Positions 2,427-14,431 of a DNA stretch of 64,000 nt are shown one piece after another; position 1 is the stretch's first letter; the number at the start of each line of letters is the position of its first letter. Source of the DNA: an uncultured Bacteroidia bacterium (GTDB lineage: Bacteria > Bacteroidota > Bacteroidia > Bacteroidales > F082); the NCBI GenBank assembly GCA_902791165.1, contig CADAVB010000008.1:12512-76511 (forward strand), written 5' to 3'. The notes below the pieces were generated by a model. It saw only the letters and a program-made list of their open reading frames with translations, did not search any database and was not told where the DNA came from. Made by a program: the position numbers and the translations under genes.

Positions 2427-3581
2427 ATGTTTAAGAATAACGGAAAACTAAAGTTGTTGATTATCGTCGGCACACGTCCTGAGATTATCAGGTTGGCCGC
2501 CGTGATTAACAAGTGCAGACAATACTTCGACTGCATCTTAGCCCATACCGGCCAAAACTACGACTACAACCTCAACGGCGTGTTTTTCAAGGACTTGAAA
2601 CTCGCCGACCCCGAGGTTTACATGGATGCCGTCGGCAACGATTTGGGAGAAACCATGGGCAACATCATCGCCAAGAGCTACCAGTTAATGGTGGAAATCA
2701 AGCCTGATGCAGTACTCGTTTTGGGCGACACCAACAGCTGCCTTTCGGTCATCGGAGCCAAGCGCCTGCATATCCCGATTTTCCACATGGAAGCCGGCAA
2801 CCGTTGCAAGGACGAATGCCTCCCCGAGGAAACCAATCGCCGCATTGTCGATATCATCTCCGACGTGAACATGGCCTACAGCGAGCACGCGAGAAGATAC
2901 CTGGCCGACTGCGGTCTGCCCAAGGAAAGAACGTATGTCACGGGCAGTCCCATGGCAGAAGTGCTGCACAACAACCTGAAGGAAATCGAAGCCTCCGACA
3001 TCCACAAGCGGCTGAACCTCGAAAAAGGCAGGTATATCCTACTCTCCGCCCATCGCGAGGAGAACATCGACACGGAGAAGAACTTCTTGAGCCTTTTCAA
3101 TGCCATCAACCGAATGGCGGAGAAATACGATATGCCCATCCTTTACAGTTGCCATCCGCGTAGTCGCAAGCGCCTTGAGGCGAGTGGCTTCCAACTCGAC
3201 CCGCGCGTCATCCAGCATGAGCCGCTGGGCTTCCACGATTACAACTGTTTGCAAATGAATGCCTTTGCTGTGGTGAGCGACAGTGGCACTTTGCCTGAGG
3301 AAAGTTCATTCTTCACAAGTGTTGGCCATCCCTTCCCCGCAGTGTGCATCCGCACTTCTACGGAGCGCCCCGAGGCATTGGACAAAGGCTGCTTCTTCAT
3401 CGCTGGCATCGACGAGAAGTCGCTACTTCAAGCTGTGGACTGCGCCGTAGAGATGAACCAGAACGCCGACCACGGCATACCCGTCCCCGACTATGTGGAT
3501 GAGAACGTCTCGACCAAAGTCGTGAAAATCATCCAGTCTTATACTGGGATTGTTGATAAGATGGTTTGGAGGAAAGAATAG
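2427..3581 (+). CDS. fnlC: UDP-N-acetylglucosamine 2-epimerase, non-hydrolysing (FnlC/CapG family)
   Basis: LLIIVGTRPEIIRLAAVI, HTGQNYDYNLN, VLGDTNS, HMEAGNRC and SDSGTLPEE are classic WecB/CapG epimerase blocks. It is third in the fnlABC order. Confidence 0.9.
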   Translation: MFKNNGKLKLLIIVGTRPEIIRLAAVINKCRQYFDCILAHTGQNYDYNLNGVFFKDLKLADPEVYMDAVGNDLGETMGNIIAKSYQLMVEIKPDAVLVLGDTNSCLSVIGAKRLHIPIFHMEAGNRCKDECLPEETNRRIVDIISDVNMAYSEHARRYLADCGLPKERTYVTGSPMAEVLHNNLKEIEASDIHKRLNLEKGRYILLSAHREENIDTEKNFLSLFNAINRMAEKYDMPILYSCHPRSRKRLEASGFQLDPRVIQHEPLGFHDYNCLQMNAFAVVSDSGTLPEESSFFTSVGHPFPAVCIRTSTERPEALDKGCFFIAGIDEKSLLQAVDCAVEMNQNADHGIPVPDYVDENVSTKVVKIIQSYTGIVDKMVWRKE

Positions 3582-3608
3582 TTTTGTAAGTGTGTAATAA
3601 AGAAAATA

Positions 3609-4025
3609 ATGCTCAATATCCTCACCTTCGGTGTCTACGATATGCTTCATATCGGACACGTTCTTTTGTTCAAGCACGCCAAGGAATTATTTCCTGATGT
3701 AGAATGCAAACTCATTGTGGCTGTGCAAGACGGAGATTGTATTTTGAAATACAAGCCTGGTACCAAGATGGTCTATTCTACCGAGGAGCGTATGTTCATG
3801 GTAAGTGCCGTGCGTTGGGTGGATGAGGTGGTGACCTATAAGGATGTGGATATTGATATTCAGCATATTGATTTCGATGTCTTTGCCAAAGGTCCCGACC
3901 AGCAGCATTCCGGTTTCCAAAGGGCTGTGGCATGGTGTGAGGCGAATGGCAAGCAGGTGGTAATTATCCCTAGGACGGAAGGCATTTCTTCGACGATGTT
4001 GAGGGAGTATAGTAAGATCAAGTAA
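3609..4025 (+). CDS. Cytidylyltransferase-family protein (TagD-like glycerol-3-phosphate cytidylyltransferase)
   Basis: 138 aa. N-terminal LTFGVYDMLHIGHVLLF is the (T/H)xGH nucleotidyltransferase motif. The size and RTEGISST C-terminal block are typical of TagD/TarD. Confidence 0.75.
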   Translation: MLNILTFGVYDMLHIGHVLLFKHAKELFPDVECKLIVAVQDGDCILKYKPGTKMVYSTEERMFMVSAVRWVDEVVTYKDVDIDIQHIDFDVFAKGPDQQHSGFQRAVAWCEANGKQVVIIPRTEGISSTMLREYSKIK

Positions 4026-4112
4026 AAAGACTATGAATCAGCTTCTTTAGGTTAAGCAATTAACAACAATGCGATTTTTAAAAGAAGAAGTTTCTCTGAT
4101 TAACTTTTTTCA

Positions 4113-4120
4113 TATTTTTG
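4113..4120 (+). promoter_or_regulatory. Bacteroidetes -7 promoter box (TATTTTTG = TAnnTTTG) for the cassette
   Basis: Exact match to the TAnnTTTG consensus, 23 nt upstream of the ATG at 4143, in an AT-rich spacer. Confidence 0.45.
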
Positions 4121-4142
4121 CAAATAAATTAAATGTTTTTTG

Positions 4143-4415
4143 ATGATAGTCCTTATTACATACGATTTGAAGCAACCTGGACGGAACTATACACCTCTTT
4201 ATGAGACTATCAAGTCGTTAGGCGAATGGCAGCATCCACTTGAATCTACTTGGTTTGTTCAGATAGATGAAGAGACTGACTTGAACGAGGTGGTTGAGCT
4301 TTTGAAAAAAAGTGCAGACAAGGGCGACCTATTTTTTGCAGTAAAAATTACCAGTAAGTATCAAGGATGGCTTCCAAAATCGTTTTGGGCTTGGCTTGAT
4401 CCAAAACAGAAATAA
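4143..4415 (+). CDS. Small (90 aa) alpha/beta protein of unknown function; the N-terminal strand-Asp signature is reminiscent of the Cas2/VapD ferredoxin fold
   Basis: MIVLITYDL...SLGEWQHPLESTWFVQ...VVELLKKSADKGDLFFAVKI follows a beta-alpha-beta-beta-alpha-beta spacing. Its stop lies 2 nt before the next ATG. ATG 4143 is preferred over TTG 4140. Confidence 0.6.
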   Translation: MIVLITYDLKQPGRNYTPLYETIKSLGEWQHPLESTWFVQIDEETDLNEVVELLKKSADKGDLFFAVKITSKYQGWLPKSFWAWLDPKQK

Positions 4416-4417
4416 CC

Positions 4418-5530
4418 ATGGTAAATTGTGTAATATTAGAAAAGTTTAAATGTTTTGACGACAGATTAGAAATACCTCTTTCTGAGGTAACAATAATGTA
4501 TGGTAAAAACGGACGAGGAAAATCTAGCGTTTCTCAAGCATTATTGTTGATTGCTCAATCTATGCGTAAAGCAAATGAACTGAACGAACTTGTCATTAAT
4601 GGAGAGTTAGTCAGCCTTGGTTATTTTGAAGAGTTATTATACAATTCCAAGGGAGGTGTTTTTACTATAGGCATCAATTCTGAAACGGAAAATTTGCTTG
4701 CACAATTTGAAGGAGTTGAGGGACATGTATTTTCTGGACGTTTGTCTCGTTTGAGTGTTAATGGTGTGGAGCGACTTGATACGATTTCTGGAACCAATGG
4801 TGTGGGTGAAGATGACAATATCCTTTCAGGTGTCGCTTCTACATCAGATATAAAGATTCTTCAAGATTTGAAGAATTGTATTTATATTTCGGCTGATCGT
4901 CATGGTCCAATCAACGTTCAAAAACGTATTTATTCTGTTAACAAACAAATTCTTGATTCTTTGGGCGACAATGTCATCCAAGTTATCGCGGAAAGAGGTC
5001 TAGAATTTCAGAAAAAACTCGAGCAATCACTTTCAGAAATCATGGATGGTGCTCATTTATCAATTCCAGAGGCCGAGTCAGATTATATCGAGTTGAGACT
5101 GAATTCTGCTGACGGTGACATCTCTTTTAAGCCAGTTAATGTTGGTTATGGCTATAGTTATGTTTTGCCTGTCGTGGTTGCATCTATGATAGCAGAAAGA
5201 GGTGGTATATTGATAGTCGAGAATCCCGAAGCGCATCTACATCCCGGAGCACAATCTCGGTTGACGCGATTTTTGATAAAAAACGCCATTGAAAAAGGGT
5301 ATCAGTTAATTATCGAAAGCCATAGCGATCATGTGGTAAACGGAATGAGGATTGCTTCCAAGGAAGGCGAAATCAAACCATCTCAGTGCCTTGTTGATTA
5401 TTTTTATACAGATTCTGATACGGGAGAATCAGTTGTTGAGGTAATAACATGTGATAGAAAAGGAACCTTAAGCAACTATCCGGATGATTTTATGGATGAA
5501 TGGACTATCCAGTTATTGCAATTGGTATGA
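4418..5530 (+). CDS. ABC-type AAA ATPase (AAA_15/AAA_21-like with a DUF3696-like C-terminus)
   Basis: Walker A GKNGRGKSS, Walker B GGILIVENPEAHLHP and H-loop IIESHSDH. The tail LSNYPDDFMDEW is typical of the DUF3696-type ATPases found in defence islands. Confidence 0.8.
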   Translation: MVNCVILEKFKCFDDRLEIPLSEVTIMYGKNGRGKSSVSQALLLIAQSMRKANELNELVINGELVSLGYFEELLYNSKGGVFTIGINSETENLLAQFEGVEGHVFSGRLSRLSVNGVERLDTISGTNGVGEDDNILSGVASTSDIKILQDLKNCIYISADRHGPINVQKRIYSVNKQILDSLGDNVIQVIAERGLEFQKKLEQSLSEIMDGAHLSIPEAESDYIELRLNSADGDISFKPVNVGYGYSYVLPVVVASMIAERGGILIVENPEAHLHPGAQSRLTRFLIKNAIEKGYQLIIESHSDHVVNGMRIASKEGEIKPSQCLVDYFYTDSDTGESVVEVITCDRKGTLSNYPDDFMDEWTIQLLQLV

Positions 5531-6384
5531 ATCAGATTTGTTTTAACGACCTTTCATCTTATCCTCTTTGTGCCGATGAGACAGAAATAGAGGTTAGGAT
5601 GAATCAGTACATTCAAACGCTGCAAGATGCGGGTCTCAATGGAATTAAAAAAGTGCGGTATGCAGATGATTTGACATCTGTTCTTTTGAGAGAAGGTTAT
5701 TCGGTGCAGGATTATTGTAACTCTCGAATGAAGATGGTCGCGGCTCAGCTCGTTCTTTCTATGGCCACAAAGCCACAAGTTCCCGAAGATAATGATGAAG
5801 TGTTGGAACATTATTTGGAAACCGAAACACGTGTTTTTAAGGATAAGCCTATAAAAGCAGACGGATTCAATGCTGCTTTTTGTATGGGAACCTATTGCAT
5901 TGGGTTTGCATCAGACGCTTTTTGGTCGATGCCTCAATTCAAAATCAATGTTTCTAACAATGATAAAATTGAGAATTACACATGGTTTTGTGTTTCATCT
6001 CCTGTCCACTTTCAAAACGCTGAGTTTCGAGAATGGTTAACTCAATTCTTGCCATTAGATTTACAAGCATCACCTTTGAATCCTGCTGAAAAAGAAATTA
6101 AATTAAGGGATGATCATGGTAAAGATAAATTGCTAACACATGCTCAAAATTTGGCGAATAGCCCTTATGTAGAAGGAGTGTTAACCTCTCTGGCTTTCGA
6201 TAGACATTCAAAGTCATACGTTAGTAAACATTCTGATTTTGCGCAAGGTCTAATTGATGTAGTTCTGTATTGGGAGTCACAAGGATATAGCATGAGGGTG
6301 AAAACAACAGGACGAAACATCCGTGAAACATTGGCAATAGCAAAGCTATTAACAAAGAAATATGGCAGAAGAAAGGATGTGTAG
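5527..6384 (+). CDS. Hypothetical protein (285 aa), no recognisable domain; translationally coupled to the ATPase
   Basis: ATGA start/stop overlap with the ATPase gene at 5527-5530. It is a long uninterrupted ORF with coding-like composition. The ORF-track start at 5500 is less likely. Confidence 0.6.
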   Translation: MNQICFNDLSSYPLCADETEIEVRMNQYIQTLQDAGLNGIKKVRYADDLTSVLLREGYSVQDYCNSRMKMVAAQLVLSMATKPQVPEDNDEVLEHYLETETRVFKDKPIKADGFNAAFCMGTYCIGFASDAFWSMPQFKINVSNNDKIENYTWFCVSSPVHFQNAEFREWLTQFLPLDLQASPLNPAEKEIKLRDDHGKDKLLTHAQNLANSPYVEGVLTSLAFDRHSKSYVSKHSDFAQGLIDVVLYWESQGYSMRVKTTGRNIRETLAIAKLLTKKYGRRKDV

Positions 6385-6461
6385 CTATTATATTTGGATA
6401 ATAGGGAATTGTATATAGTATTTTGAATAATAACTGTTGCGAAAACAACCTAAAGAATGAT

Positions 6462-6563
6462 GCCGTTGCATGGTGTGAGGCGAATGGCAAGCAAGTGGTG
6501 ACCATTCCAAGGACGGAAGGCATTTCTTCGACGATGTTGAGGGAATATAGTAAGATAAAGTAA
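6462..6563 (+). pseudogene. Orphan duplicate of the last 33 codons of the cytidylyltransferase gene
   Basis: It translates to AVAWCEANGKQVVTIPRTEGISSTMLREYSKIK*, versus ...VVIIPR... in the intact gene. There are 10 nt differences, and all but one codon change is synonymous. Confidence 0.8.
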
Positions 6564-6569
6564 ACCATA

Positions 6570-7778
6570 ATGAAAATAGCTTTAATCAAAGAAACAAAGA
6601 CCCCAGTTGACAACCGCGTGGCACTCGCCCCTAAACAGGTGGCTGAGTTGAACAGACAATTTCCGCAGCATCAGATTGTGCTGCAGTCCAGCGATATCCG
6701 CGCTTTCTCCGATGAAGAGTATCGGGCAGAGGGTGTTGAGGTGTTAAATGATGTCAGCGATGCCGACATCCTTTTCGGCATCAAGGAGGCCAAGATTGAA
6801 AGTTTGATTCCGAACAAGCATTATTTCTTCTTTGGCCATATTGCCAAGATGCAGGAATACAACCGTCCACTGCTGCAGGCATTCATTCAGAAGCATATCA
6901 CCTTCTGTGATTACGAATACCTTGTGGATGACAACAATGTCCGCGTTTGTGCCTTCGGTTGGTGGGCTGGCGTGGTGGGTGCCTATTACACCCTGCGCGG
7001 CTATGGCTTGAAGCACAAGCTTTATGAATTACCCAAGCCCGACCGCCGTTTCACCCTCGACCAGCTGCTGAATGCGCTGAAGAGTGTTGAGCTCCCCAAG
7101 GTGAAACTGATGGTGACAGGTGCAGGTCGTGTCTCTCAAGGAGCACAATATGTGTTGGATAACATCGGTGCCCATAAGATGAGCGAAGAAGAGTATCTTT
7201 CCTGTGATTCGGTGGACCATTTGTCCTATTGTTTCGCCGACGTTGACCGCCTGGTGAAACGCAAGGATGGTGGTGTCTTCTCGTGGAATGATTTCACGCA
7301 CAACGCAAAGGAATACGAAAGCGACTTCATGCGTTGGGCAAAGAAAACCGATGTGTTGGTATGCGCCCATTTCTGGGGACCGGAGGCGCCGGTTTACCTG
7401 AGCGAAGAGGATTTGCGTAACAAGGACATGCGCATCCGTATGATTGGCGATGTGACATGCGACATCAAGGGTAGCATCAAATCAACGGTTCGTCCTGCTA
7501 CACACGATGATCCCTATTATGATTATAACCCAATGACAGAACAGGACGAGCCTGCTTTCTCATCGCCTAATAGCATCTCCGTAATGGCAGTGGACACTTG
7601 CCCGAATGCTTTGGCGATGGATACCAGTGCTTATTTCGGTGAAATGTTGACAAAGCATGTGTTTGAGCCTTTGCTGAAGGGCGAACATTCCGAGGTGATT
7701 GGTCGTTCAATGATTCTGAAAGACGGTATGTTGACACCGAGATTTGATTATTTGACGGATTTTGCTGAAGGCAAATAA
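6570..7778 (+). CDS. Lysine-ketoglutarate reductase / saccharopine dehydrogenase (L-lysine-forming)-like, AlaDH/PNT family
   Basis: YFFFGHIAKMQEYNRPLL, VCAFGWWAGVVGAY and VTGAGRVSQGAQ parallel the LKR domain of AASS as I recall it (FFSHTIKAQEANMGLL, VAFGQWAGVAG, FTGTGNVSKGAQ). Confidence 0.75.
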   Translation: MKIALIKETKTPVDNRVALAPKQVAELNRQFPQHQIVLQSSDIRAFSDEEYRAEGVEVLNDVSDADILFGIKEAKIESLIPNKHYFFFGHIAKMQEYNRPLLQAFIQKHITFCDYEYLVDDNNVRVCAFGWWAGVVGAYYTLRGYGLKHKLYELPKPDRRFTLDQLLNALKSVELPKVKLMVTGAGRVSQGAQYVLDNIGAHKMSEEEYLSCDSVDHLSYCFADVDRLVKRKDGGVFSWNDFTHNAKEYESDFMRWAKKTDVLVCAHFWGPEAPVYLSEEDLRNKDMRIRMIGDVTCDIKGSIKSTVRPATHDDPYYDYNPMTEQDEPAFSSPNSISVMAVDTCPNALAMDTSAYFGEMLTKHVFEPLLKGEHSEVIGRSMILKDGMLTPRFDYLTDFAEGK

Positions 7779-7779
7779 A

Positions 7780-9258
7780 ATGGCTGCAAAAAACTTAAAA
7801 CAAAAAGCTGCATCTGGAATGGTGTGGACCGCCTTTCAGAAGTATTCCAAGATGATTATCCAATTCGTCTCGGGTATCATTTTGGCGCGTCTGCTTACAC
7901 CGTTCGATTATGGTTGCATTGGTATGCTGTCCATCTTTATGGTTTTGGCAGAAAACTTTATTGATGCAGGATTTGGTTCTGCATTGATACAAAAAAAAAG
8001 GCCTACCCAAGAGGATTATTCTACAGTTTTCTGGTGGAATCTAGGGGTAGCTTTTGTAATGTATACAGTTTTGTATTTCTGCGCACCTACTATTTCGCGA
8101 TTTTATGAGATTCCCTTGTTGTCTGATGTTTTGAGGGTAGAAGGTATAGTCTTGTTTATCTATTCGCTTAATATCATCCAACGTAATCAGCTTAAGAAAA
8201 AACTGAATTTTAAGCTGTTGTCGATTATTTCTGTTACTACATCCATTATTGCATTGTGTGTTACTATATTCATGGCTTATAAAGGTCTTGGTGTGTGGGC
8301 GTTAGTGGCACAGAATTTGATTATTGCGGCTATACCATCCTTAGTTTTTTGGTTCTATGTGAAATGGCGTCCTAAAATGGTTTTCTCATGGCGGTCGTTC
8401 AAAGAATTGTTTAGTTTTGGTTTTTATATGTTTCTTTCAAATCTTGTTAATAGTTTTTCGACCCAAGTGACAGGTTTGATTATTGGTAAAGTTTACAACG
8501 CTTCTACATTGGGTTATTATTCTAAAGCGCTTGGAACAGAGAAACTTGCTTCCCATTCCGTTTCTTCAATAATGACCCAAGTAACTTATCCTCTATACGC
8601 TGAAGTTCAAGACGATAAACCAGCACTAATTAACATGATTAAACGATTGTCCATGACTATATCATACATCACTTTTCCCATGATGTTTATTTTAATGTTA
8701 ATTGCGAAGCCGTTGTTCTTATTGCTCTATTCAGAAAAATGGATTCAAAGCATCCCATATTTTCAAGTATTGTGTATTGCTGGTTTGGCGGCTTGTTTGC
8801 AATCGGTAAATGCACAGACTATTTCGGCTATTGGTAAGAGTCGTACAATGTTTATTTGGACCTTTATCAAACGTATTATAGGCTTTACAGCTATGGTTGG
8901 TGGATTGATGTTGTTTGGGATGAAAGGATTGTTGATAGGGGTGATTATCAATGCATGGTTCGCGTATTTTGTCAATACCTCATTAGTGTCTAAACATATA
9001 GGTTATAAACAAGTACAACAATATTTAGACATTGCACCGGTTGCAGTGGCTTCTGTAATAATTGCAGGAATAACATATTTCGGCGTTGGTCTTTTGAATT
9101 TCAACCTATATATGGATGGACTCGTAAAACTAATTGTTTTTCTTGCGCTTTATTTAGGTTGGTCATTCGTTTTCAAACCCGAAGCATATACTTATTTCCT
9201 TACGATAATCCCAGCTCGTTTTCGTTTTTGGGAACGACATAGCAAAACAAAACAATAA
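7780..9258 (+). CDS. wzx: Polysaccharide flippase (Wzx, MOP superfamily)
   Basis: About 12 predicted TM segments and an N-terminal block (WTAFQKYSKMIIQFVSGIILARLLTPFDYG) typical of Wzx. ATG 7780 lies just after the upstream stop. Confidence 0.8.
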   Translation: MAAKNLKQKAASGMVWTAFQKYSKMIIQFVSGIILARLLTPFDYGCIGMLSIFMVLAENFIDAGFGSALIQKKRPTQEDYSTVFWWNLGVAFVMYTVLYFCAPTISRFYEIPLLSDVLRVEGIVLFIYSLNIIQRNQLKKKLNFKLLSIISVTTSIIALCVTIFMAYKGLGVWALVAQNLIIAAIPSLVFWFYVKWRPKMVFSWRSFKELFSFGFYMFLSNLVNSFSTQVTGLIIGKVYNASTLGYYSKALGTEKLASHSVSSIMTQVTYPLYAEVQDDKPALINMIKRLSMTISYITFPMMFILMLIAKPLFLLLYSEKWIQSIPYFQVLCIAGLAACLQSVNAQTISAIGKSRTMFIWTFIKRIIGFTAMVGGLMLFGMKGLLIGVIINAWFAYFVNTSLVSKHIGYKQVQQYLDIAPVAVASVIIAGITYFGVGLLNFNLYMDGLVKLIVFLALYLGWSFVFKPEAYTYFLTIIPARFRFWERHSKTKQ

Positions 9259-9272
9259 TAAACAGTACAGCT

Positions 9273-10004
9273 ATGAGTAATTTCATGGATTTATTAAAAT
9301 CAAATGTGACAAAAACCATTTGGTTCAACTTTAAAATGCTTCCTTGGAAACAAGCAATTCGTTTGCCTGTAGTGTTTTATGGAAGAGTCAGTTTTCGATC
9401 ATTGAAAGGGATAGTCTCTATAAAAGGTGGGGTATCAACAGGAATGATTAAAATTGGAGTGAATCAATATGTTGATACAGGAGTACCAGAGAGCATTTGG
9501 ATTATTGATGGCATAATGAAGTTTAATGGACCAATGAAAATGGCAAGAGGTTCCTATATTCATGTAGCAAAAAACGCTACATTGTCTATAGGTTCTGTTG
9601 GTACGTTCTTTGGATCTAATCTGCGAATCTTATGTTGGGATAAGATTACTTTTGGGAATAGTGTCAGAATTACATGGGATTGCCAGTTTTATGATACGAG
9701 TTTTCATTATATAGAATCGTTGGACCCCACCAAAGATATTAAATCTTTGACAAAACCCGTTTCAATAGGCGATAGAGTTTGGATAGGTAATCGAACAACA
9801 ATTTCTAAAGGAGCAATGATTCCAGACGATACCATTGTGGCATCGAATAGTTTGGTAAATAAGGATTTTTCTGATATAGGTCCATATTGTATGCTGGCAG
9901 GAATGCCAGCGGTGGTTAAAACTAAAGAGATTAGGAGGATCTTTGATGTCAAGAAACAAACTCAACTTGACAAACAATTTGGATACCAAAGGCATAAATT
10001 ATAA
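9273..10004 (+). CDS. Hexapeptide-repeat (left-handed beta-helix) acyl/acetyltransferase
   Basis: IGDRVWIGNRTTISKGAMIPDDTIVASNSLVNKD hexapeptide repeats. Confidence 0.7.
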   Translation: MSNFMDLLKSNVTKTIWFNFKMLPWKQAIRLPVVFYGRVSFRSLKGIVSIKGGVSTGMIKIGVNQYVDTGVPESIWIIDGIMKFNGPMKMARGSYIHVAKNATLSIGSVGTFFGSNLRILCWDKITFGNSVRITWDCQFYDTSFHYIESLDPTKDIKSLTKPVSIGDRVWIGNRTTISKGAMIPDDTIVASNSLVNKDFSDIGPYCMLAGMPAVVKTKEIRRIFDVKKQTQLDKQFGYQRHKL

Positions 10005-10018
10005 AAAACATATAATAT

Positions 10019-11083
10019 ATGAATTTATTCTTTTGTGGTGATATTATGCCAGGAGGTGTTTTGCCCTATCAAAGCAAATATATTACTCCAGAACTGCAGG
10101 ACTATATGCGAAGCTTTGATTTCCGTATCGGAACATTGGAAGCTGCTATTGGAACAAACATGCCGTATGATCCCGTTAAAATGGCAGGGAGGCAAAATAT
10201 CATCTATGCCCGAAATGAAGATTTTTCGAGAATCAAGGAGATGGGGTTTGATGTCGTTTCTTTAGCTAATAACCATGTATGGGATTTGGGCGAAGAAGGG
10301 TTGAAGAATACAATTGACATCATAAACCAAGCAAATATCAAATATTTAGGAGCGGGAATGAATGGAGATGCTGCTTCCAAACCTGTCATTTTGAATAAAG
10401 GTGGGGTGTGTGTCGCTATTTTTGCTTATTGTCTTGGGCCTAAATATTTAGGATATGTCGAGTTTGCAGGAAAAGACAAAGCTGGGACTAACCCTTTCGA
10501 CCTGGAAAAGGTGAAAGAAGAGATAAAAAATGCTAAAAAGGAGTATGAATATGTCATAGTAATGCCACATTGGGGGTTAGAGTATCACATGGAACCACGT
10601 CGAGAATGCATGTTTTTTGCTAAACAAATGATTATGGCTGGTGCAGATGCTGTGTTGGGTAGTCATCCCCACGTGGCTCAGCCTTGTGTCAAATACAAAC
10701 ATGGTTTCATCTGCTATAGTATGGGTAACTTTTTGTTCCCCGATTTTTATATGTATCCCCCTCGACCTATTTGGTATCCCGATTCATCAGTTGATTTGTC
10801 TCAAATCGAAGACATTTTCACTTATCCATATCCCATTGAAAAACCACAAAGAAGAGTTTGGAAAAAAACTTCACGATATGGATGCGTTGCACATGTGACA
10901 ATCGAAAAAGAATGCTTTGATGTGACGTACAAATATGTCAAATTATCTCAAGATAATGTTGTGGGACTGACCGATTTAGATAATGATGTTAGGAAATCAT
11001 TGTCTAAAGCAACATTGTTGTCCAAAAATAGCTTTATTCGGCGTCTTGTCTTCTTGAAAAGAAGAATGATAAATAAATATTAG
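10019..11083 (+). CDS. CapA-family protein (PGA_cap metallophosphatase-like), paralogue 1
   Basis: GDIMPGG, SLANNHVWDLGEEG, GAGMN, VMPHWGLEY, GADAVLGSHPHV and YSMGNFLFPD are CapA/PgsA signature blocks. Confidence 0.85.
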   Translation: MNLFFCGDIMPGGVLPYQSKYITPELQDYMRSFDFRIGTLEAAIGTNMPYDPVKMAGRQNIIYARNEDFSRIKEMGFDVVSLANNHVWDLGEEGLKNTIDIINQANIKYLGAGMNGDAASKPVILNKGGVCVAIFAYCLGPKYLGYVEFAGKDKAGTNPFDLEKVKEEIKNAKKEYEYVIVMPHWGLEYHMEPRRECMFFAKQMIMAGADAVLGSHPHVAQPCVKYKHGFICYSMGNFLFPDFYMYPPRPIWYPDSSVDLSQIEDIFTYPYPIEKPQRRVWKKTSRYGCVAHVTIEKECFDVTYKYVKLSQDNVVGLTDLDNDVRKSLSKATLLSKNSFIRRLVFLKRRMINKY

Positions 11084-11086
11084 ATT

Positions 11087-12223
11087 ATGAAAACCAATAA
11101 AATTCTGTTATTCATGGGAAGGATGTTCGGGAAGATAAGCTCAAAAGCTTTCTTTCTAAAGAATGTCTGTTTCCGCAAAGCATACGATTTGAAGGAATTG
11201 AAAACAAAGGACAAGCTTTCCAAAGGCAAACCCGTTGACAAAGCTGCGATTAAGCAAATATGGAATGGTATTCGTGTTAATGATATATGGAGCAGATATT
11301 ATAACGGAATAGAACGAGAAACAAATGATGCGTTTGACGCCAGATATATTCCGTTGGATATGGAAGCGTGTTTTATTGACGATTGGTTTAATAACACAAA
11401 TGCAGCCCTTGCAATTGATGATAAGAACATGTATGACATGTATTTTCATGATGTGAATATGCCTAAAACGGTTGGCCGTATTATCAATCGCACGTTTTTC
11501 GACGATAATTATCATCTGATTTCCATTGACTCCCTGATAGATCGTTGTTCGTTGGCAAAACATGTGATTATGAAACCTTCCATTGGTACAATGGCGGGGC
11601 ATGGCATCGTTTTTTGGAATGAGGAAGAAGGCTTGGACGTGTTGAAAAAGTTTTTGCAAGAGCATGACAATTATATTATTCAAGAGCTTATTCATCAACA
11701 TGAAGAAATCAACAAAATATATTCACAAAGTGTAAATTCAATTCGTATTGTCACCTGTAACTTCAAAGGGAAAACAGAAGTGTTGTCAGCGGTCATTCGT
11801 TTAGGCCAAGGGGGTAACAAATTGGATAATGCCAGTCAAGGAGGTCTGTTCTGTGGAATCAATGAAGATGGGACATTAAAGAAATTTGGATATTCAAAAT
11901 ATGGTGAAACATGCACAGTTCACCCGCAAGGAGCTGTGTTCGCCGATTGCCGCATCCCTAATTTTGATAAGTGTAAAGAACTCGTCATTGATTTGTCCAA
12001 TCGTTTTTTGAGGATTTCAAAACTGATTTCTTGGGATTTGGCTGTGGATGAGAACGGTGAACCGACAATCATTGAAGTTAATCTTTGCTATGGAGGTACG
12101 GACATTCACCAGATTGCCAACGGGCCGCTGTTTGGCGACAAAACTGAAGAAGTGCTGGATAGTGTTTTCAGAAAACAGAGGAAATACAGAGTTGCAAATA
12201 GAATATTAAGCATTTACGGATGA
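11087..12223 (+). CDS. Sugar-transfer-associated ATP-grasp ligase (ATPgrasp_ST family), paralogue 1
   Basis: SVNSIRIVT, RLGQGGNKLDNASQGGLFCGINEDG, HPQG, WDLAVDENGEPTIIEVN. Confidence 0.8.
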   Translation: MKTNKILLFMGRMFGKISSKAFFLKNVCFRKAYDLKELKTKDKLSKGKPVDKAAIKQIWNGIRVNDIWSRYYNGIERETNDAFDARYIPLDMEACFIDDWFNNTNAALAIDDKNMYDMYFHDVNMPKTVGRIINRTFFDDNYHLISIDSLIDRCSLAKHVIMKPSIGTMAGHGIVFWNEEEGLDVLKKFLQEHDNYIIQELIHQHEEINKIYSQSVNSIRIVTCNFKGKTEVLSAVIRLGQGGNKLDNASQGGLFCGINEDGTLKKFGYSKYGETCTVHPQGAVFADCRIPNFDKCKELVIDLSNRFLRISKLISWDLAVDENGEPTIIEVNLCYGGTDIHQIANGPLFGDKTEEVLDSVFRKQRKYRVANRILSIYG

Positions 12224-13329
12224 TACGTATTATTGGAGTCGGTGATATTATGCCTGGAGGACTTCTCCATGGTTCAGATCAACAATTTGTTTCAGATCAA
12301 GTGCTGTCTTTGTTGAATCAAGGGGATCTTCGAGTAGGTACCTTGGAATGTGCAATAGGGAACACACCTGATTTCATTGAAGAAAAGATGTCAAGATATG
12401 GAGACGTGGTGTATGTCCCTGACGCAGATTTGAAACGGATCAAGGAGCTGAATATGGATATGGTTAGTTTGGCAAACAATCATTTTTTTGATCTGAAGGT
12501 GTCTGGTGCCAACCATACCATTCAGTTGCTGGATGAATATGGTATTAAACATAGCGGTGCTGGGATGAATCTGGAAGAAGCCCGTAAACCTGCTGTTTTC
12601 AATATAAGAGGAAAATCCGTCGCAGTCTTGGCATTTTGTGATGTCCATAAGTATATGGGGTATATCCCAATTGCAAAAAGTAATTGTGCCGGCGTTAACC
12701 CCTTGGACGAAGCTTATGCGCTCGGTGAAATAAAGAATGCAAAAAAGCAATATGATTATGTGGTTGTGATGCCGCATTGGGGTAGGGAACACACCTTCGA
12801 GACAACCCTTTGGTGTTATCAAATGGCAAAGAAAATGTTCAAAGCAGGTGCAGATTTGGTTTTAGGCAGTCATCCTCACCGCGTACAAGCAGTCGTGAAT
12901 AAACATGGAAAATCTGTTGCTTATAGTATGGGCAATTTTTGTTTTCCGGACAGGTTGATAGCACCTCCTTTAAGATCCACCTATTATACAGAAGAAAGCA
13001 TCGAACTAGAAAAGCTTCCTGTAACATATAAATATCCTGCGGTTGAAGAGATTACTTATAAGAAATGGATCCCTTTGGCTCGATATGGCATGATTGTGTC
13101 AACCACAATCGACAACCATAGGATTGATTCAGAATTTCGTCTTACGCATATTGATGAAAACAACTTCATAGATTTCGCTGATCGCAATTCTGAGATAGAA
13201 AAAGGTTTGTCAAAATATCATTTTCTTTTAAACCATACGCCATATAGTTTTGTGTTACCTTTAAAAAACAAAGTAAGCTCTTTTGTAAGCCGGTTTTATT
13301 CCACCAAGCATAAAGAAAATAATAAGTAA
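12220..13329 (+). CDS. CapA-family protein, paralogue 2
   Basis: It has the same blocks as paralogue 1 (GDIMPGG, SLANNHFFDL, GAGMN, VMPHWGREH, GADLVLGSHPH, YSMGNFCFPD). ATGA overlap with the upstream gene. Confidence 0.85.
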   Translation: MIRIIGVGDIMPGGLLHGSDQQFVSDQVLSLLNQGDLRVGTLECAIGNTPDFIEEKMSRYGDVVYVPDADLKRIKELNMDMVSLANNHFFDLKVSGANHTIQLLDEYGIKHSGAGMNLEEARKPAVFNIRGKSVAVLAFCDVHKYMGYIPIAKSNCAGVNPLDEAYALGEIKNAKKQYDYVVVMPHWGREHTFETTLWCYQMAKKMFKAGADLVLGSHPHRVQAVVNKHGKSVAYSMGNFCFPDRLIAPPLRSTYYTEESIELEKLPVTYKYPAVEEITYKKWIPLARYGMIVSTTIDNHRIDSEFRLTHIDENNFIDFADRNSEIEKGLSKYHFLLNHTPYSFVLPLKNKVSSFVSRFYSTKHKENNK

Positions 13330-13342
13330 TTGAATTATAAAA

Positions 13343-14431
13343 ATGAAAAAACCACGTTCATTCTTAAGAACAATAAAATCTGCAAAAAAGGATTTCATGC
13401 TCCTTTACAAAACAGGGAGACATCAAGTTTTTTCCCGCTTCCGCAAATATAGAAAATTGCGTTCTTCAAAAAAAATGAAGATAGAAGAGTTTATAAACTA
13501 TGAAGAAGCATTGAAAGATAAAGAATTCTGTGAAACATTTTTGACTTTTAGAGAAGCGTGGGGCTATTGGAAGGTGTTGAACCCTTCTGGATATTATGCA
13601 TTGGCGAAGGATAAATATATCTCCCATTTGTTACTTGAAAAGGAAGGTGTTCCGACTCCCGAATTATATGCCTATTATCATCCGGAAAAGGGGAAATCTG
13701 GCTTTGAGGCGTTAAGAAAGGAGTTGGAGTCAAAAAATGTGCAATCATGTGTGGTCAAGCCTGCTGTTGACGGTGCTCATGGTGCAGGGGTTTTTGTGTG
13801 TAAAGAGCTGAATTATATGCAGGATGATATTATAATCACAAAATCCAAAGGGGAACAGTTATCATTACGCGATTTCTTCAAGAAAAACAAGTCTACATCG
13901 TGGCTGTTTGAAGAAATTGTGGTTCAAAGTGATCAAATTGGAAGGATTAATCGAAGTTCGGTGAATACGGTAAGGTTTATGACAGCACTTTATCCTGATG
14001 GGAGTGCAAAAGTGTTTGCTACATTTATGAAGATTGGACGTGCTGGCTCTGATGTTGATAATGCTGGAGGTGGAGGTAATGTGGATTGTGCAATTAATAT
14101 TGAAACAGGGGAATGCTATAATGCGCTTCAGTTCAATTCATATACCGATGTGAAAAAAGTTAACAACCATCCAGATTCTGGAGAAAAGATTAATGGAATA
14201 CACATTGAGAATTGGGAAGAAATCAAAAAACGTCTTTGCGATTACCAAGCTTATATTCCACAATTAAAAGCTATTGGATGGGATGTGGCTTTGACCGACA
14301 AAGGTCCAGTTATTATAGAAATAAACAATTACTGGGATACTACTGGTCAATTGTTCTTGGGTAGAGGCTGGAGAGAAGAGGTGAGGGATTGCTATCTTGC
14401 CTGGAAAGAATACTACGACAATAAAAAGTAA
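13343..14431 (+). CDS. Sugar-transfer-associated ATP-grasp ligase, paralogue 2
   Basis: SSVNTVRFMT, KIGRAGSDVDNAGGGGNVDCAINIETG, HPDSGEKI, GWDVALTDKGPVIIEINN. Confidence 0.8.
   Translation: MKKPRSFLRTIKSAKKDFMLLYKTGRHQVFSRFRKYRKLRSSKKMKIEEFINYEEALKDKEFCETFLTFREAWGYWKVLNPSGYYALAKDKYISHLLLEKEGVPTPELYAYYHPEKGKSGFEALRKELESKNVQSCVVKPAVDGAHGAGVFVCKELNYMQDDIIITKSKGEQLSLRDFFKKNKSTSWLFEEIVVQSDQIGRINRSSVNTVRFMTALYPDGSAKVFATFMKIGRAGSDVDNAGGGGNVDCAINIETGECYNALQFNSYTDVKKVNNHPDSGEKINGIHIENWEEIKKRLCDYQAYIPQLKAIGWDVALTDKGPVIIEINNYWDTTGQLFLGRGWREEVRDCYLAWKEYYDNKK

Follow-up and report, generated by a model that had tools for sequence, protein, structure and literature searches.

What does a block of three small genes do in the middle of a capsule operon, and how did it get there? 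The question is raised by a 64-kb stretch of DNA from an uncultured Bacteroidia bacterium (assembly GCA_902791165.1, contig CADAVB010000008.1, positions 12,512 to 76,511), referred to here as the window; coordinates are those of the window unless one of the compared loci, numbered with an L, is named. In the window, the cytidylyltransferase gene (cytT) of a polysaccharide locus is followed by three coupled genes and then by a partial second copy of the cytT 3′-end. An earlier reading of the sequence, the original prediction, took the block for an undescribed defence-type module inserted into the operon. The analysis bears out the defence character, but "undescribed" holds only in part. Genes 2 and 3 match NsnB and NsnC of a system already named in PADLOC, Menshen, whereas a Cas2-fold first gene in the place of NsnA was not found described. 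The block is thus probably a three-gene anti-phage or anti-mobile-element cassette of the Menshen type that does without NsnA and consists of a Cas2-fold protein, NsnB and NsnC.

Genes 2 and 3 are of the Menshen type

Gene 2 matches the PADLOC model of NsnB over its full length (residues 1-369, 8.3e-82). The next matches in PADLOC are partial and far weaker: PDC-M55A (9e-34), AriA (1e-25), GajA (7e-16) and PtuA (1.5e-6). All PADLOC matches given here are at the level of hidden Markov models (HMMs), not of the system-calling rules; a Menshen call by PADLOC or DefenseFinder requires all three core genes. In Pfam, AAA_15 (8e-24), AAA_21 (1e-17) and DUF3696 (32.3 bits, cut-off 22) are all above threshold. 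The ATPase motifs listed in the original prediction are present, namely Walker A GKNGRGKSS, Walker B (ILIVENPEAHLHP, read as ILIVEN) and ESHSDH, and GYG stands where the ABC signature SGG is expected. Li et al. give a DUF3696 C-terminal helix as a feature of NsnB and a Walker B with "EN" and GYG instead of SGG as its peculiarities (PMC12065111), and the "EN" and GYG of gene 2 agree with them. One NsnB homologue, on a low-coverage human-gut contig (L047:4165-4728), is split into three fragments of its open reading frame (ORF), maybe as a pseudogene or through a sequencing error.

Gene 3 matches the NsnC model PDLC03895, again over its full length (8.2e-60). It has an N-terminal domain (residues ~1-175) and a DUF2103-like C-terminal domain (~180-285), of which residues 180-279 match the C-terminal part of the model CARF7--CARF_DUF2103 (4.7e-9). 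The conserved residues are concentrated in the C-domain (K189, D196, H197, G198, H205, S221 and the T261-G-R-N stretch with E267). Homologues of NsnC fall into 169 clusters at 90% identity; none was found on a plasmid in PLSDB. A DUF2103-like C-domain joined to an inactive-PIN-like (inPIN) N-domain is an already catalogued class of NsnC effector (PMC12065111), and the new effector logic that had been proposed for the block is not supported.

Menshen consists of NsnA, NsnB and NsnC, and the system of Solibacillus silvestris StLB046 has been validated as anti-phage (cited in PMC12065111). The block shares with it the NsnB ABC ATPase with its DUF3696 tail and "EN" Walker B, the DUF2103-like effector NsnC, and the order and coupling of the two genes. 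It differs in the first position, which is held by a 90-aa Cas2-fold protein and not by the ParB-DUF262/ParBDB protein NsnA. PARIS (AriA/AriB), Septu (PtuA/PtuB) and Gabija (GajA/GajB) are more distant. They have in common with the block an AAA_15/21 ABC ATPase and a toxic effector that is thought to be restrained. The block lacks their TOPRIM, HNH or helicase partners, and its HMM matches to them are partial and much weaker than that to NsnB. Genes 1 and 3 have no PADLOC or Pfam match to the AriB TOPRIM, the PtuB HNH or the GajB helicase and GajA TOPRIM, as had been noted from the sequence for HNH and TOPRIM. The PADLOC candidate systems PDC-M55 and HEC-03 were rejected, the ATPase similarity being partial and a partner match lacking.

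An ABC-type ATPase inside a polysaccharide operon could, by its fold and its location, be an export ATPase with two accessory proteins, and the trio would then serve polysaccharide synthesis or export. This is scarcely credible. Pfam ABC_tran reaches 13.7 bits where 25 are required, so that no transporter signal rises above noise; the ATPase is of the soluble AAA_15/OLD-type class, and among solved structures the one nearest to it in sequence is a nuclease of the OLD family (6p74, 1.6e-8). The AlphaFold2 (AF2) model of gene 3 (predicted local distance difference test, pLDDT, 94.5) has no neighbour in the PDB at E<0.1 when searched whole with Foldseek, and thus a recognisable glycosyl- or acyl-transferase fold is excluded. 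Such a fold was considered for the 285-aa protein and rejected, as neither Foldseek nor the PDB-profile search matched one, and the earlier view that no product of the block looks like a sugar enzyme stands. Moreover, relatives with an empty site have capsule loci without the trio, and the trio also occurs outside capsule loci (both below).

The first gene encodes a Cas2-fold protein

The AF2 model of gene 1 (pLDDT 93.5) is a ferredoxin-like beta-alpha-beta-beta-alpha-beta fold with an added C-terminal helix. A Foldseek search of the PDB places Cas2 entries or Cas2-family proteins at 25 of the 27 top ranks and VapD at one, with 5h1o_A (E 7e-4) in the lead and TM-scores of ~0.48-0.62 for these matches. 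By sequence, the full length of the protein is matched below threshold by five PADLOC Cas2 models, Pfam CRISPR_Cas2 and TIGR01573 (E 0.002-0.03; 16.2 bits against a curated threshold of 23.8 in Pfam, and 15.1 against 24.5 for TIGR01573). No relative in the PDB was found by sequence for this protein or for NsnC. Pfam CRISPR_Cas2 is matched at E<=0.1 by 55 of 131 diverse members of the gene-1 family, the best at 6.5e-7. Since gene 1 itself is below the thresholds, though so many of its relatives match, we regard it as a relative within the Cas2 superfamily and not as a Cas2 orthologue.

Eight positions keep the same residue in 90% or more of the 131 members (Y7, D8, L9, Y16, S35, W37, D62 and W84). 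D8 lies on the N-terminal strand, is invariant in a set of 40 homologues, and coincides with what we take to be the catalytic or metal-binding Asp position of Cas2 and VapD; 6zi1, one of the PDB matches, bears the title "D7N mutant". The conserved Asp and the Cas2/VapD fold together suggest that the protein binds or cleaves nucleic acid. While it shares the fold and the near-invariant Asp with the Cas2/VapD superfamily, it is set apart, besides its sub-threshold scores, by a signature of its own (HPLES and a Trp-rich C-terminal helix, GWLPKSFWxW). No Cas1 family is present in the gene tables of the trio loci sampled; CRISPR arrays were not searched for.

The protein also matches phrog_1090, a phage protein family without assigned function, over its full length (6e-21). 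In a profile search of 1.84 billion representative proteins, this PHROG 1090-type family comprises 4405 clusters at 50% identity (E<=1e-3), nearly all of ~90 aa; the gene-1 homologues amount to 59 clusters at 90% identity. What distinguishes the gene in the window from the lone prophage gene of that family is that it is chromosomal and translationally coupled to NsnB-NsnC. It does not resemble NsnA, for which there is no PADLOC match at E<=1 and no Pfam DUF262/GmrSD_N match.

Cas2 is not mentioned in the sole dedicated Menshen paper that we found (PMC12065111), and "Cas2-like" was not found in the top-ranked literature on antiphage ABC ATPases. The Menshen survey of 1997 systems took NsnA as its seed (PMC12065111), and being so anchored it would have missed loci that lack NsnA. 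So far as the literature searched shows, a Menshen clade that lacks NsnA and begins with a Cas2-fold gene is new, and so is its spread through capsule loci by way of a recombination scar.

The three genes recur together, often in defence-rich contexts

That the block holds three coupled ORFs was correctly seen from the sequence: gene 2 starts 2 nt past the stop codon of gene 1, and gene 3 overlaps gene 2 through ATGA. The same order recurs elsewhere. Wherever a sampled locus has an NsnC 31-100% identical to that of the window, NsnB is directly preceded by a gene-1 homologue, and this holds for L114 and L116 as well. Identities to gene 1, NsnB and NsnC of the window are 76, 74 and 67% at L019, 74, 70 and 59% at L008, 54, 51 and 31% at L013, and 44, 47 and 43% at L022; by these values the three proteins diverge together. 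L025 is different: its NsnC, 36% identical to that of the window, sits in a canonical operon (NsnA 6.5e-130, NsnB 4.5e-115, NsnC 5.5e-86). Since this NsnC is of the same sub-family, PDLC03895, the Cas2-like/NsnB/NsnC loci make up a coherent clade that arose within, or is sister to, canonical Menshen.

The wider family of gene 1 complicates the matter. A metagenome scan gave 336 stretches encoding relatives of gene 1; in the best 80, which were examined, NsnB is immediately 3′ of the homologue in 44 and the homologue is alone in 36. Homologues without NsnBC are common on environmental contigs, beside genes for ImmA/IrrE-type peptidases, XRE proteins, integrases and restriction-modification (R-M) enzymes. 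In temperate Firmicutes phages the homologue is part of the lysogeny module, as with gp05 of Enterococcus phage phiFL2B, which is beside cI, a DUF955 gene and an integrase gene. Lone homologues were seen near cI/XRE, DUF955/ImmA-type peptidase and integrase genes in the phage records GQ478085.1 (L112:3495-3773) and KT626446.1 (L113:3501-3743), and with the same types of neighbour on the environmental contigs L082, L086, L103, L104, L075, L090 and L018.

Such solitary occurrence would be expected if NsnB-NsnC were the functional unit and gene 1 an independent, hitch-hiking PHROG 1090 moron, for example a VapD/Cas2-like toxin or a superinfection-exclusion factor. The 36 lone loci, the phage copies beside cI, ImmA and integrase genes, the great size of the family, and one homologue that follows a GHKL-like ATPase and a 219-aa protein instead all favor this explanation. 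Nevertheless, we consider it unlikely, given the 2-nt gap to NsnB, the presence of gene 1 at every sampled NsnBC locus of the clade (with NsnC down to 31%) and its co-divergence with NsnB and NsnC, and the loss of NsnA exactly where gene 1 appears.

The homologue just mentioned (47% identical to gene 1) stands third in a different putative trio (L015:5433-8273), preceded by genes for a 615-aa protein with weak HATPase_c/GHKL similarity (E 0.002) and for the 219-aa protein. That trio has no PADLOC match, is located between a SIR2-HerA pair and capsule genes, and may be another system that uses the same small Cas2-like protein. It is possible, although we hold the idea tentatively and would not favor it at present, that the PHROG 1090 Cas2-fold family is an autonomous infection sensor or trigger that can be plugged into different ATPase-effector chassis, replacing ParB-DUF262 in Menshen here and being coupled to a GHKL-like ATPase elsewhere, and that also acts alone in prophage lysogeny modules.

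The trio is not confined to polysaccharide loci of shared synteny, which would have told against the original prediction. It is found within at least four different capsule loci (window/L001-L007, L008, L013 and L022) and at the border of defence and capsule genes (L010 and L114, in the latter beside a NACHT gene). It is also found in a classic defence island outside capsule loci (L019-L021, with genes for KAP NTPase, RelA_SpoT, ThsB-TIR, caspase and TIR proteins), next to SecA (L116), and, in 16 dereplicated metagenome loci, amid housekeeping and defence genes (DarT-Macro, type III R-M, AbiH, DUF4276+AAA_21). This recurrence in unrelated capsule loci, in defence islands and beside housekeeping genes argues for a mobile defence-type module and against a part in sugar chemistry, in agreement with the NsnB and NsnC matches and with the original prediction.

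The frequent association with capsule loci, within them or at their edge (window/L001-L007, L008, L010, L013, L022 and L114), could also mean that the trio stabilises the capsule locus in the manner of an addiction or toxin-antitoxin system, or that it links capsule expression to stress as a regulator, and that it is no anti-phage system. Its nuclease- or toxin-like components and its orientation, the same as that of the operon, are compatible with this. Such a role is highly improbable given the loci in the non-capsule island, beside SecA and amid housekeeping and defence genes, and given the homology to a system reported experimentally to be anti-phage (PMC12065111).

Where the trio stands at the 5′ edge of a capsule locus, other defence-type genes lie immediately beside it, such as those for AbiH (L008:10399-11547) and a NACHT/NA-iREase2 protein (L114:1171-3318). 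At L010 (620-7178), its neighbor is a block of AAA_15, SMC_N-like and N6_N4 methylase genes. These cases suggest that the borders of capsule loci act as small defence islands in these Bacteroidales.

How the cassette may work

In canonical Menshen, NsnA is proposed to be the sensor, NsnB the transducer and NsnC the effector, the signal from NsnA to NsnB being left unexplained (PMC12065111). In a published AlphaFold 3 model, an NsnB tetramer clamps the N-domain of NsnC between the DUF3696 tails, and the arrangement is likened to PARIS, Septu and Gabija (PMC12065111). By analogy with those models and systems, from which we infer both the architecture and the activation of the complex, NsnC of the cassette would be held by the DUF3696 tails of NsnB oligomers. 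An infection cue would shift the state of the ATPase so that NsnC is activated or released, and its DUF2103-like C-domain would damage nucleic acid, probably RNA, and thereby halt the infection. The Cas2-fold protein would take the sensor position of the ParB-DUF262 protein NsnA; it probably binds or cuts nucleic acid derived from the invader, or reports its presence. This last step is the most speculative one.

Several observations weigh against an anti-phage cassette of this type. NsnA is absent from the 64-kb window, in which neither tblastn with a bona fide NsnA nor a scan for the DGxQR motif found it, and the gene upstream is cytT; strict membership in Menshen therefore fails, and because the search spanned the window, an NsnA elsewhere in the genome is possible. 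Most homologues of gene 1 occur singly, within the lysogeny modules of prophages or next to ImmA/XRE genes, and must therefore have a role independent of NsnBC, which makes the assignment as sensor a guess. The null Foldseek result for NsnC cuts in the same direction: with no PDB fold match, both its PIN-like N-domain and any nuclease chemistry are putative. The DUF2103-like domain has no confident structural homologue in the published work either (PMC12065111), in agreement with that result. Finally, anti-phage activity has been demonstrated solely for the canonical NsnABC system and never for this variant (PMC12065111).

A cassette slot between cytT and the flippase gene

The claim that the block was inserted at a formerly tight gene junction is upheld by relatives with an empty site. 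Five metagenome-assembled genomes (MAGs) of rumen Bacteroidia have a single copy of cytT, 86-87% identical to that of the window, and no trio. In three of them (L026, L029 and L030) the flippase gene comes directly after cytT, in L029 and L030 with the junction TAATTATG and a 2-nt gap. The other two (L027 and L028) have an extra segment between cytT and the flippase gene; that of L028 is shorter and without the full 173-aa ORF. This ORF in the L027 segment was equated with the GNAT gene of L003 by the shared sequence after the stop codon and by its length, not by Pfam. Since the MAG junctions are either empty or hold an extra segment, the tight cytT-flippase junction is ancestral, and it is a slot that accepts cassettes. 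An exact empty site joining cytT to the AlaDH gene that follows the block in the window was not found; the sole extra contig with an identical AlaDH protein begins 55 nt upstream of the AlaDH gene.

In L003 and L007 the slot holds more: a GNAT acetyltransferase cassette and then, behind a near-perfect flippase start, a third copy of the cytT 3′-end (L003:10326-11386). Apparently the same GNAT cassette precedes an intact flippase gene in L027, and the slot thus carries cargo other than the trio. It looks like a site where cassettes are stacked serially by recombination.

The second copy of the cytT 3′-end had been read as a footprint of the insertion. The repeat is real (103 nt, 90% identity), but it is better explained as a recombination scar. 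The left edge of the repeat falls exactly where the 5′ region of the flippase gene, GCCGCCGC AGGC ATGGTGTGGACC, and cytT, GCTGTGGC ATGGTGTGAGGC, share microhomology, and a relic of the flippase start precedes the right copy (Table 1). The relic and the microhomology indicate that the 103-nt copy is a chimera of flippase 5′ and cytT 3′ sequence that arose by illegitimate recombination at the level of microhomology, and not a target-site duplication: where a short duplication would be expected, the block is flanked by a repeat made up of 103 nt of coding sequence, to which the flippase-start relic is joined. A cassette of the transposon or integron type was rejected, there being three ORFs, no recombinase and no terminal inverted repeats.

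The junction between the cassette and the right copy is the same in the window, L001, L002 and L003 (L005 is 100% identical to window 3000-8000), while what lies around it varies. The upstream genes are 91-94% identical between the window and L001, and unrelated between the window and L002/L003. For cytT plus cassette (3582-6461), L001 is 100%/99.9% identical to the window; in L002/L003 the 5′ part of cytT is 84-85% identical and the cassette 98.5%. The right copy is 90% identical in L001, whereas in L002/L003 it is 97-99% identical to the left-copy allele of the window, i.e., the two repeat alleles are on opposite sides compared with the window. Downstream, AlaDH is 89.7% and the flippase 70% identical in L001; in L002/L003 AlaDH is absent and the flippase gene is 69-75% identical. 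As cytT and cassette are nearly identical between loci whose flanks diverge, the cassette must have moved recently.

The duplicated 103 nt could serve as a right-hand homology arm, with which a cassette-copy unit, with or without cytT, would enter any capsule locus that bears cytT. Entry may be by double crossover, or by looping out through the repeats and re-integrating in the Campbell manner; either route of homologous recombination would account for the shared junction, the variable downstream genes with their native spacing and the swapped alleles. In this way the cassette, occupying the cytT/flippase slot, would be spreading among the capsule loci of Bacteroidales.

Layout and sequence context of the block

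The features of the block and of its edges are collected in Table 1. The ATG assigned to gene 1 agrees with the MIVLITYDL start of its homologues. The three genes are intact, with a ratio of nonsynonymous to synonymous substitution rates of ~0.3-0.6 based on few substitutions. Epimerase, flippase, PGA_cap and ATP-grasp genes make up the polysaccharide surroundings (gene tables of L001 and L005).

Table 1. Features of the cassette and its flanks in the window.
Feature	Position	Strand	Evidence
cytT, cytidylyltransferase gene, 138 aa; resident capsule-locus gene with duplicated 3′-end	3609..4025	+	Pfam CTP_transf_like 1.1e-17
Left copy of the 103-nt repeat, the authentic cytT 3′-end	3924..4026	+	Repeat search, 90% identity to 6462-6564
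Cassette leader with TAnnTTTG box TATTTTTG at 4113-4120 (Bacteroidetes -7-like; candidate promoter)	4027..4142	+	Sequence
Gene 1, 90-aa Cas2-fold protein, PHROG 1090	4143..4415	+	AF2, Foldseek, HMMs
Gene 2, NsnB-type ABC ATPase, 370 aa	4418..5530	+	PADLOC, Pfam
Gene 3, NsnC-type effector, 285 aa	5527..6384	+	PADLOC NsnC PDLC03895
Spacer past the NsnC stop codon, second TAnnTTTG at 6389-6396	6385..6436	+	Sequence
Degenerate relic of the flippase (wzx) start, ~10 codons	~6437..6461	+	Alignment with L029 and L030 cytT-flippase junctions and L003 flippase start
Right copy (partial) of the cytT 3′-end, by which the next gene regains its tight native junction	6462..6564	+	Repeat search
AlaDh_PNT_N-family capsule-locus gene (AlaDH), 402 aa	6570..7778	+	Pfam 3.4e-20

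Two further arguments of the original prediction lose weight. The block is indeed AT-rich, with a G+C content of 0.35-0.41 against 0.45-0.55 in the immediate flanks, but the capsule genes downstream (7800-14000) are just as AT-rich, and composition taken alone is therefore weak evidence of foreign origin. Likewise, the TAnnTTTG box of the leader is present, but the motif occurs 54 times in the window where 50.5 are expected by chance, and at such a frequency its presence alone is no evidence of a promoter. A promoter deduced from this box was accordingly dropped; scans for sigma-70 promoters and terminators were uninformative. The start of the leader, AAGAC(T/A)ATGAATC, is kept across L001-L003, and no Rfam match points to a structured RNA in the block. 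From the second box, which precedes the restored junction, transcription of the downstream operon could be initiated anew, with the same caveat that the motif is at chance frequency.

A further ORF of non-sugar character lies upstream. It encodes a 122-aa protein of the PDDEXK_3 nuclease superfamily (1971-2339; Pfam 2.2e-39), coincides with a dip in G+C content (0.37 vs. ~0.48) and is located between two conserved sugar-nucleotide genes; being present also in L001 and L005, it looks like another small insertion.

Implications

The mechanism of Menshen is unknown, and the signaling from NsnA to NsnB is its least understood step (PMC12065111). In the cassette described here, a ParB-DUF262 sensor of ~400-600 aa would be swapped for a Cas2-fold protein of 90 aa, which offers a minimal and tractable version of the system for asking what the ATPase senses. 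The cassette also gives a first functional context to a very large family of phage and prophage proteins. If members of PHROG 1090 do act as autonomous sensors, Cas2-like proteins would have a place in defence wholly outside CRISPR adaptation, and Menshen-type effectors would be open to re-wiring to a new class of input.

For the Bacteroidales, the cytT/flippase slot and the duplicated 103-nt homology arm would provide a concrete route by which defence cassettes pass between capsule loci. Capsule loci are themselves determinants of phage resistance, and two layers of phage resistance would therefore be coupled in one recombining locus.

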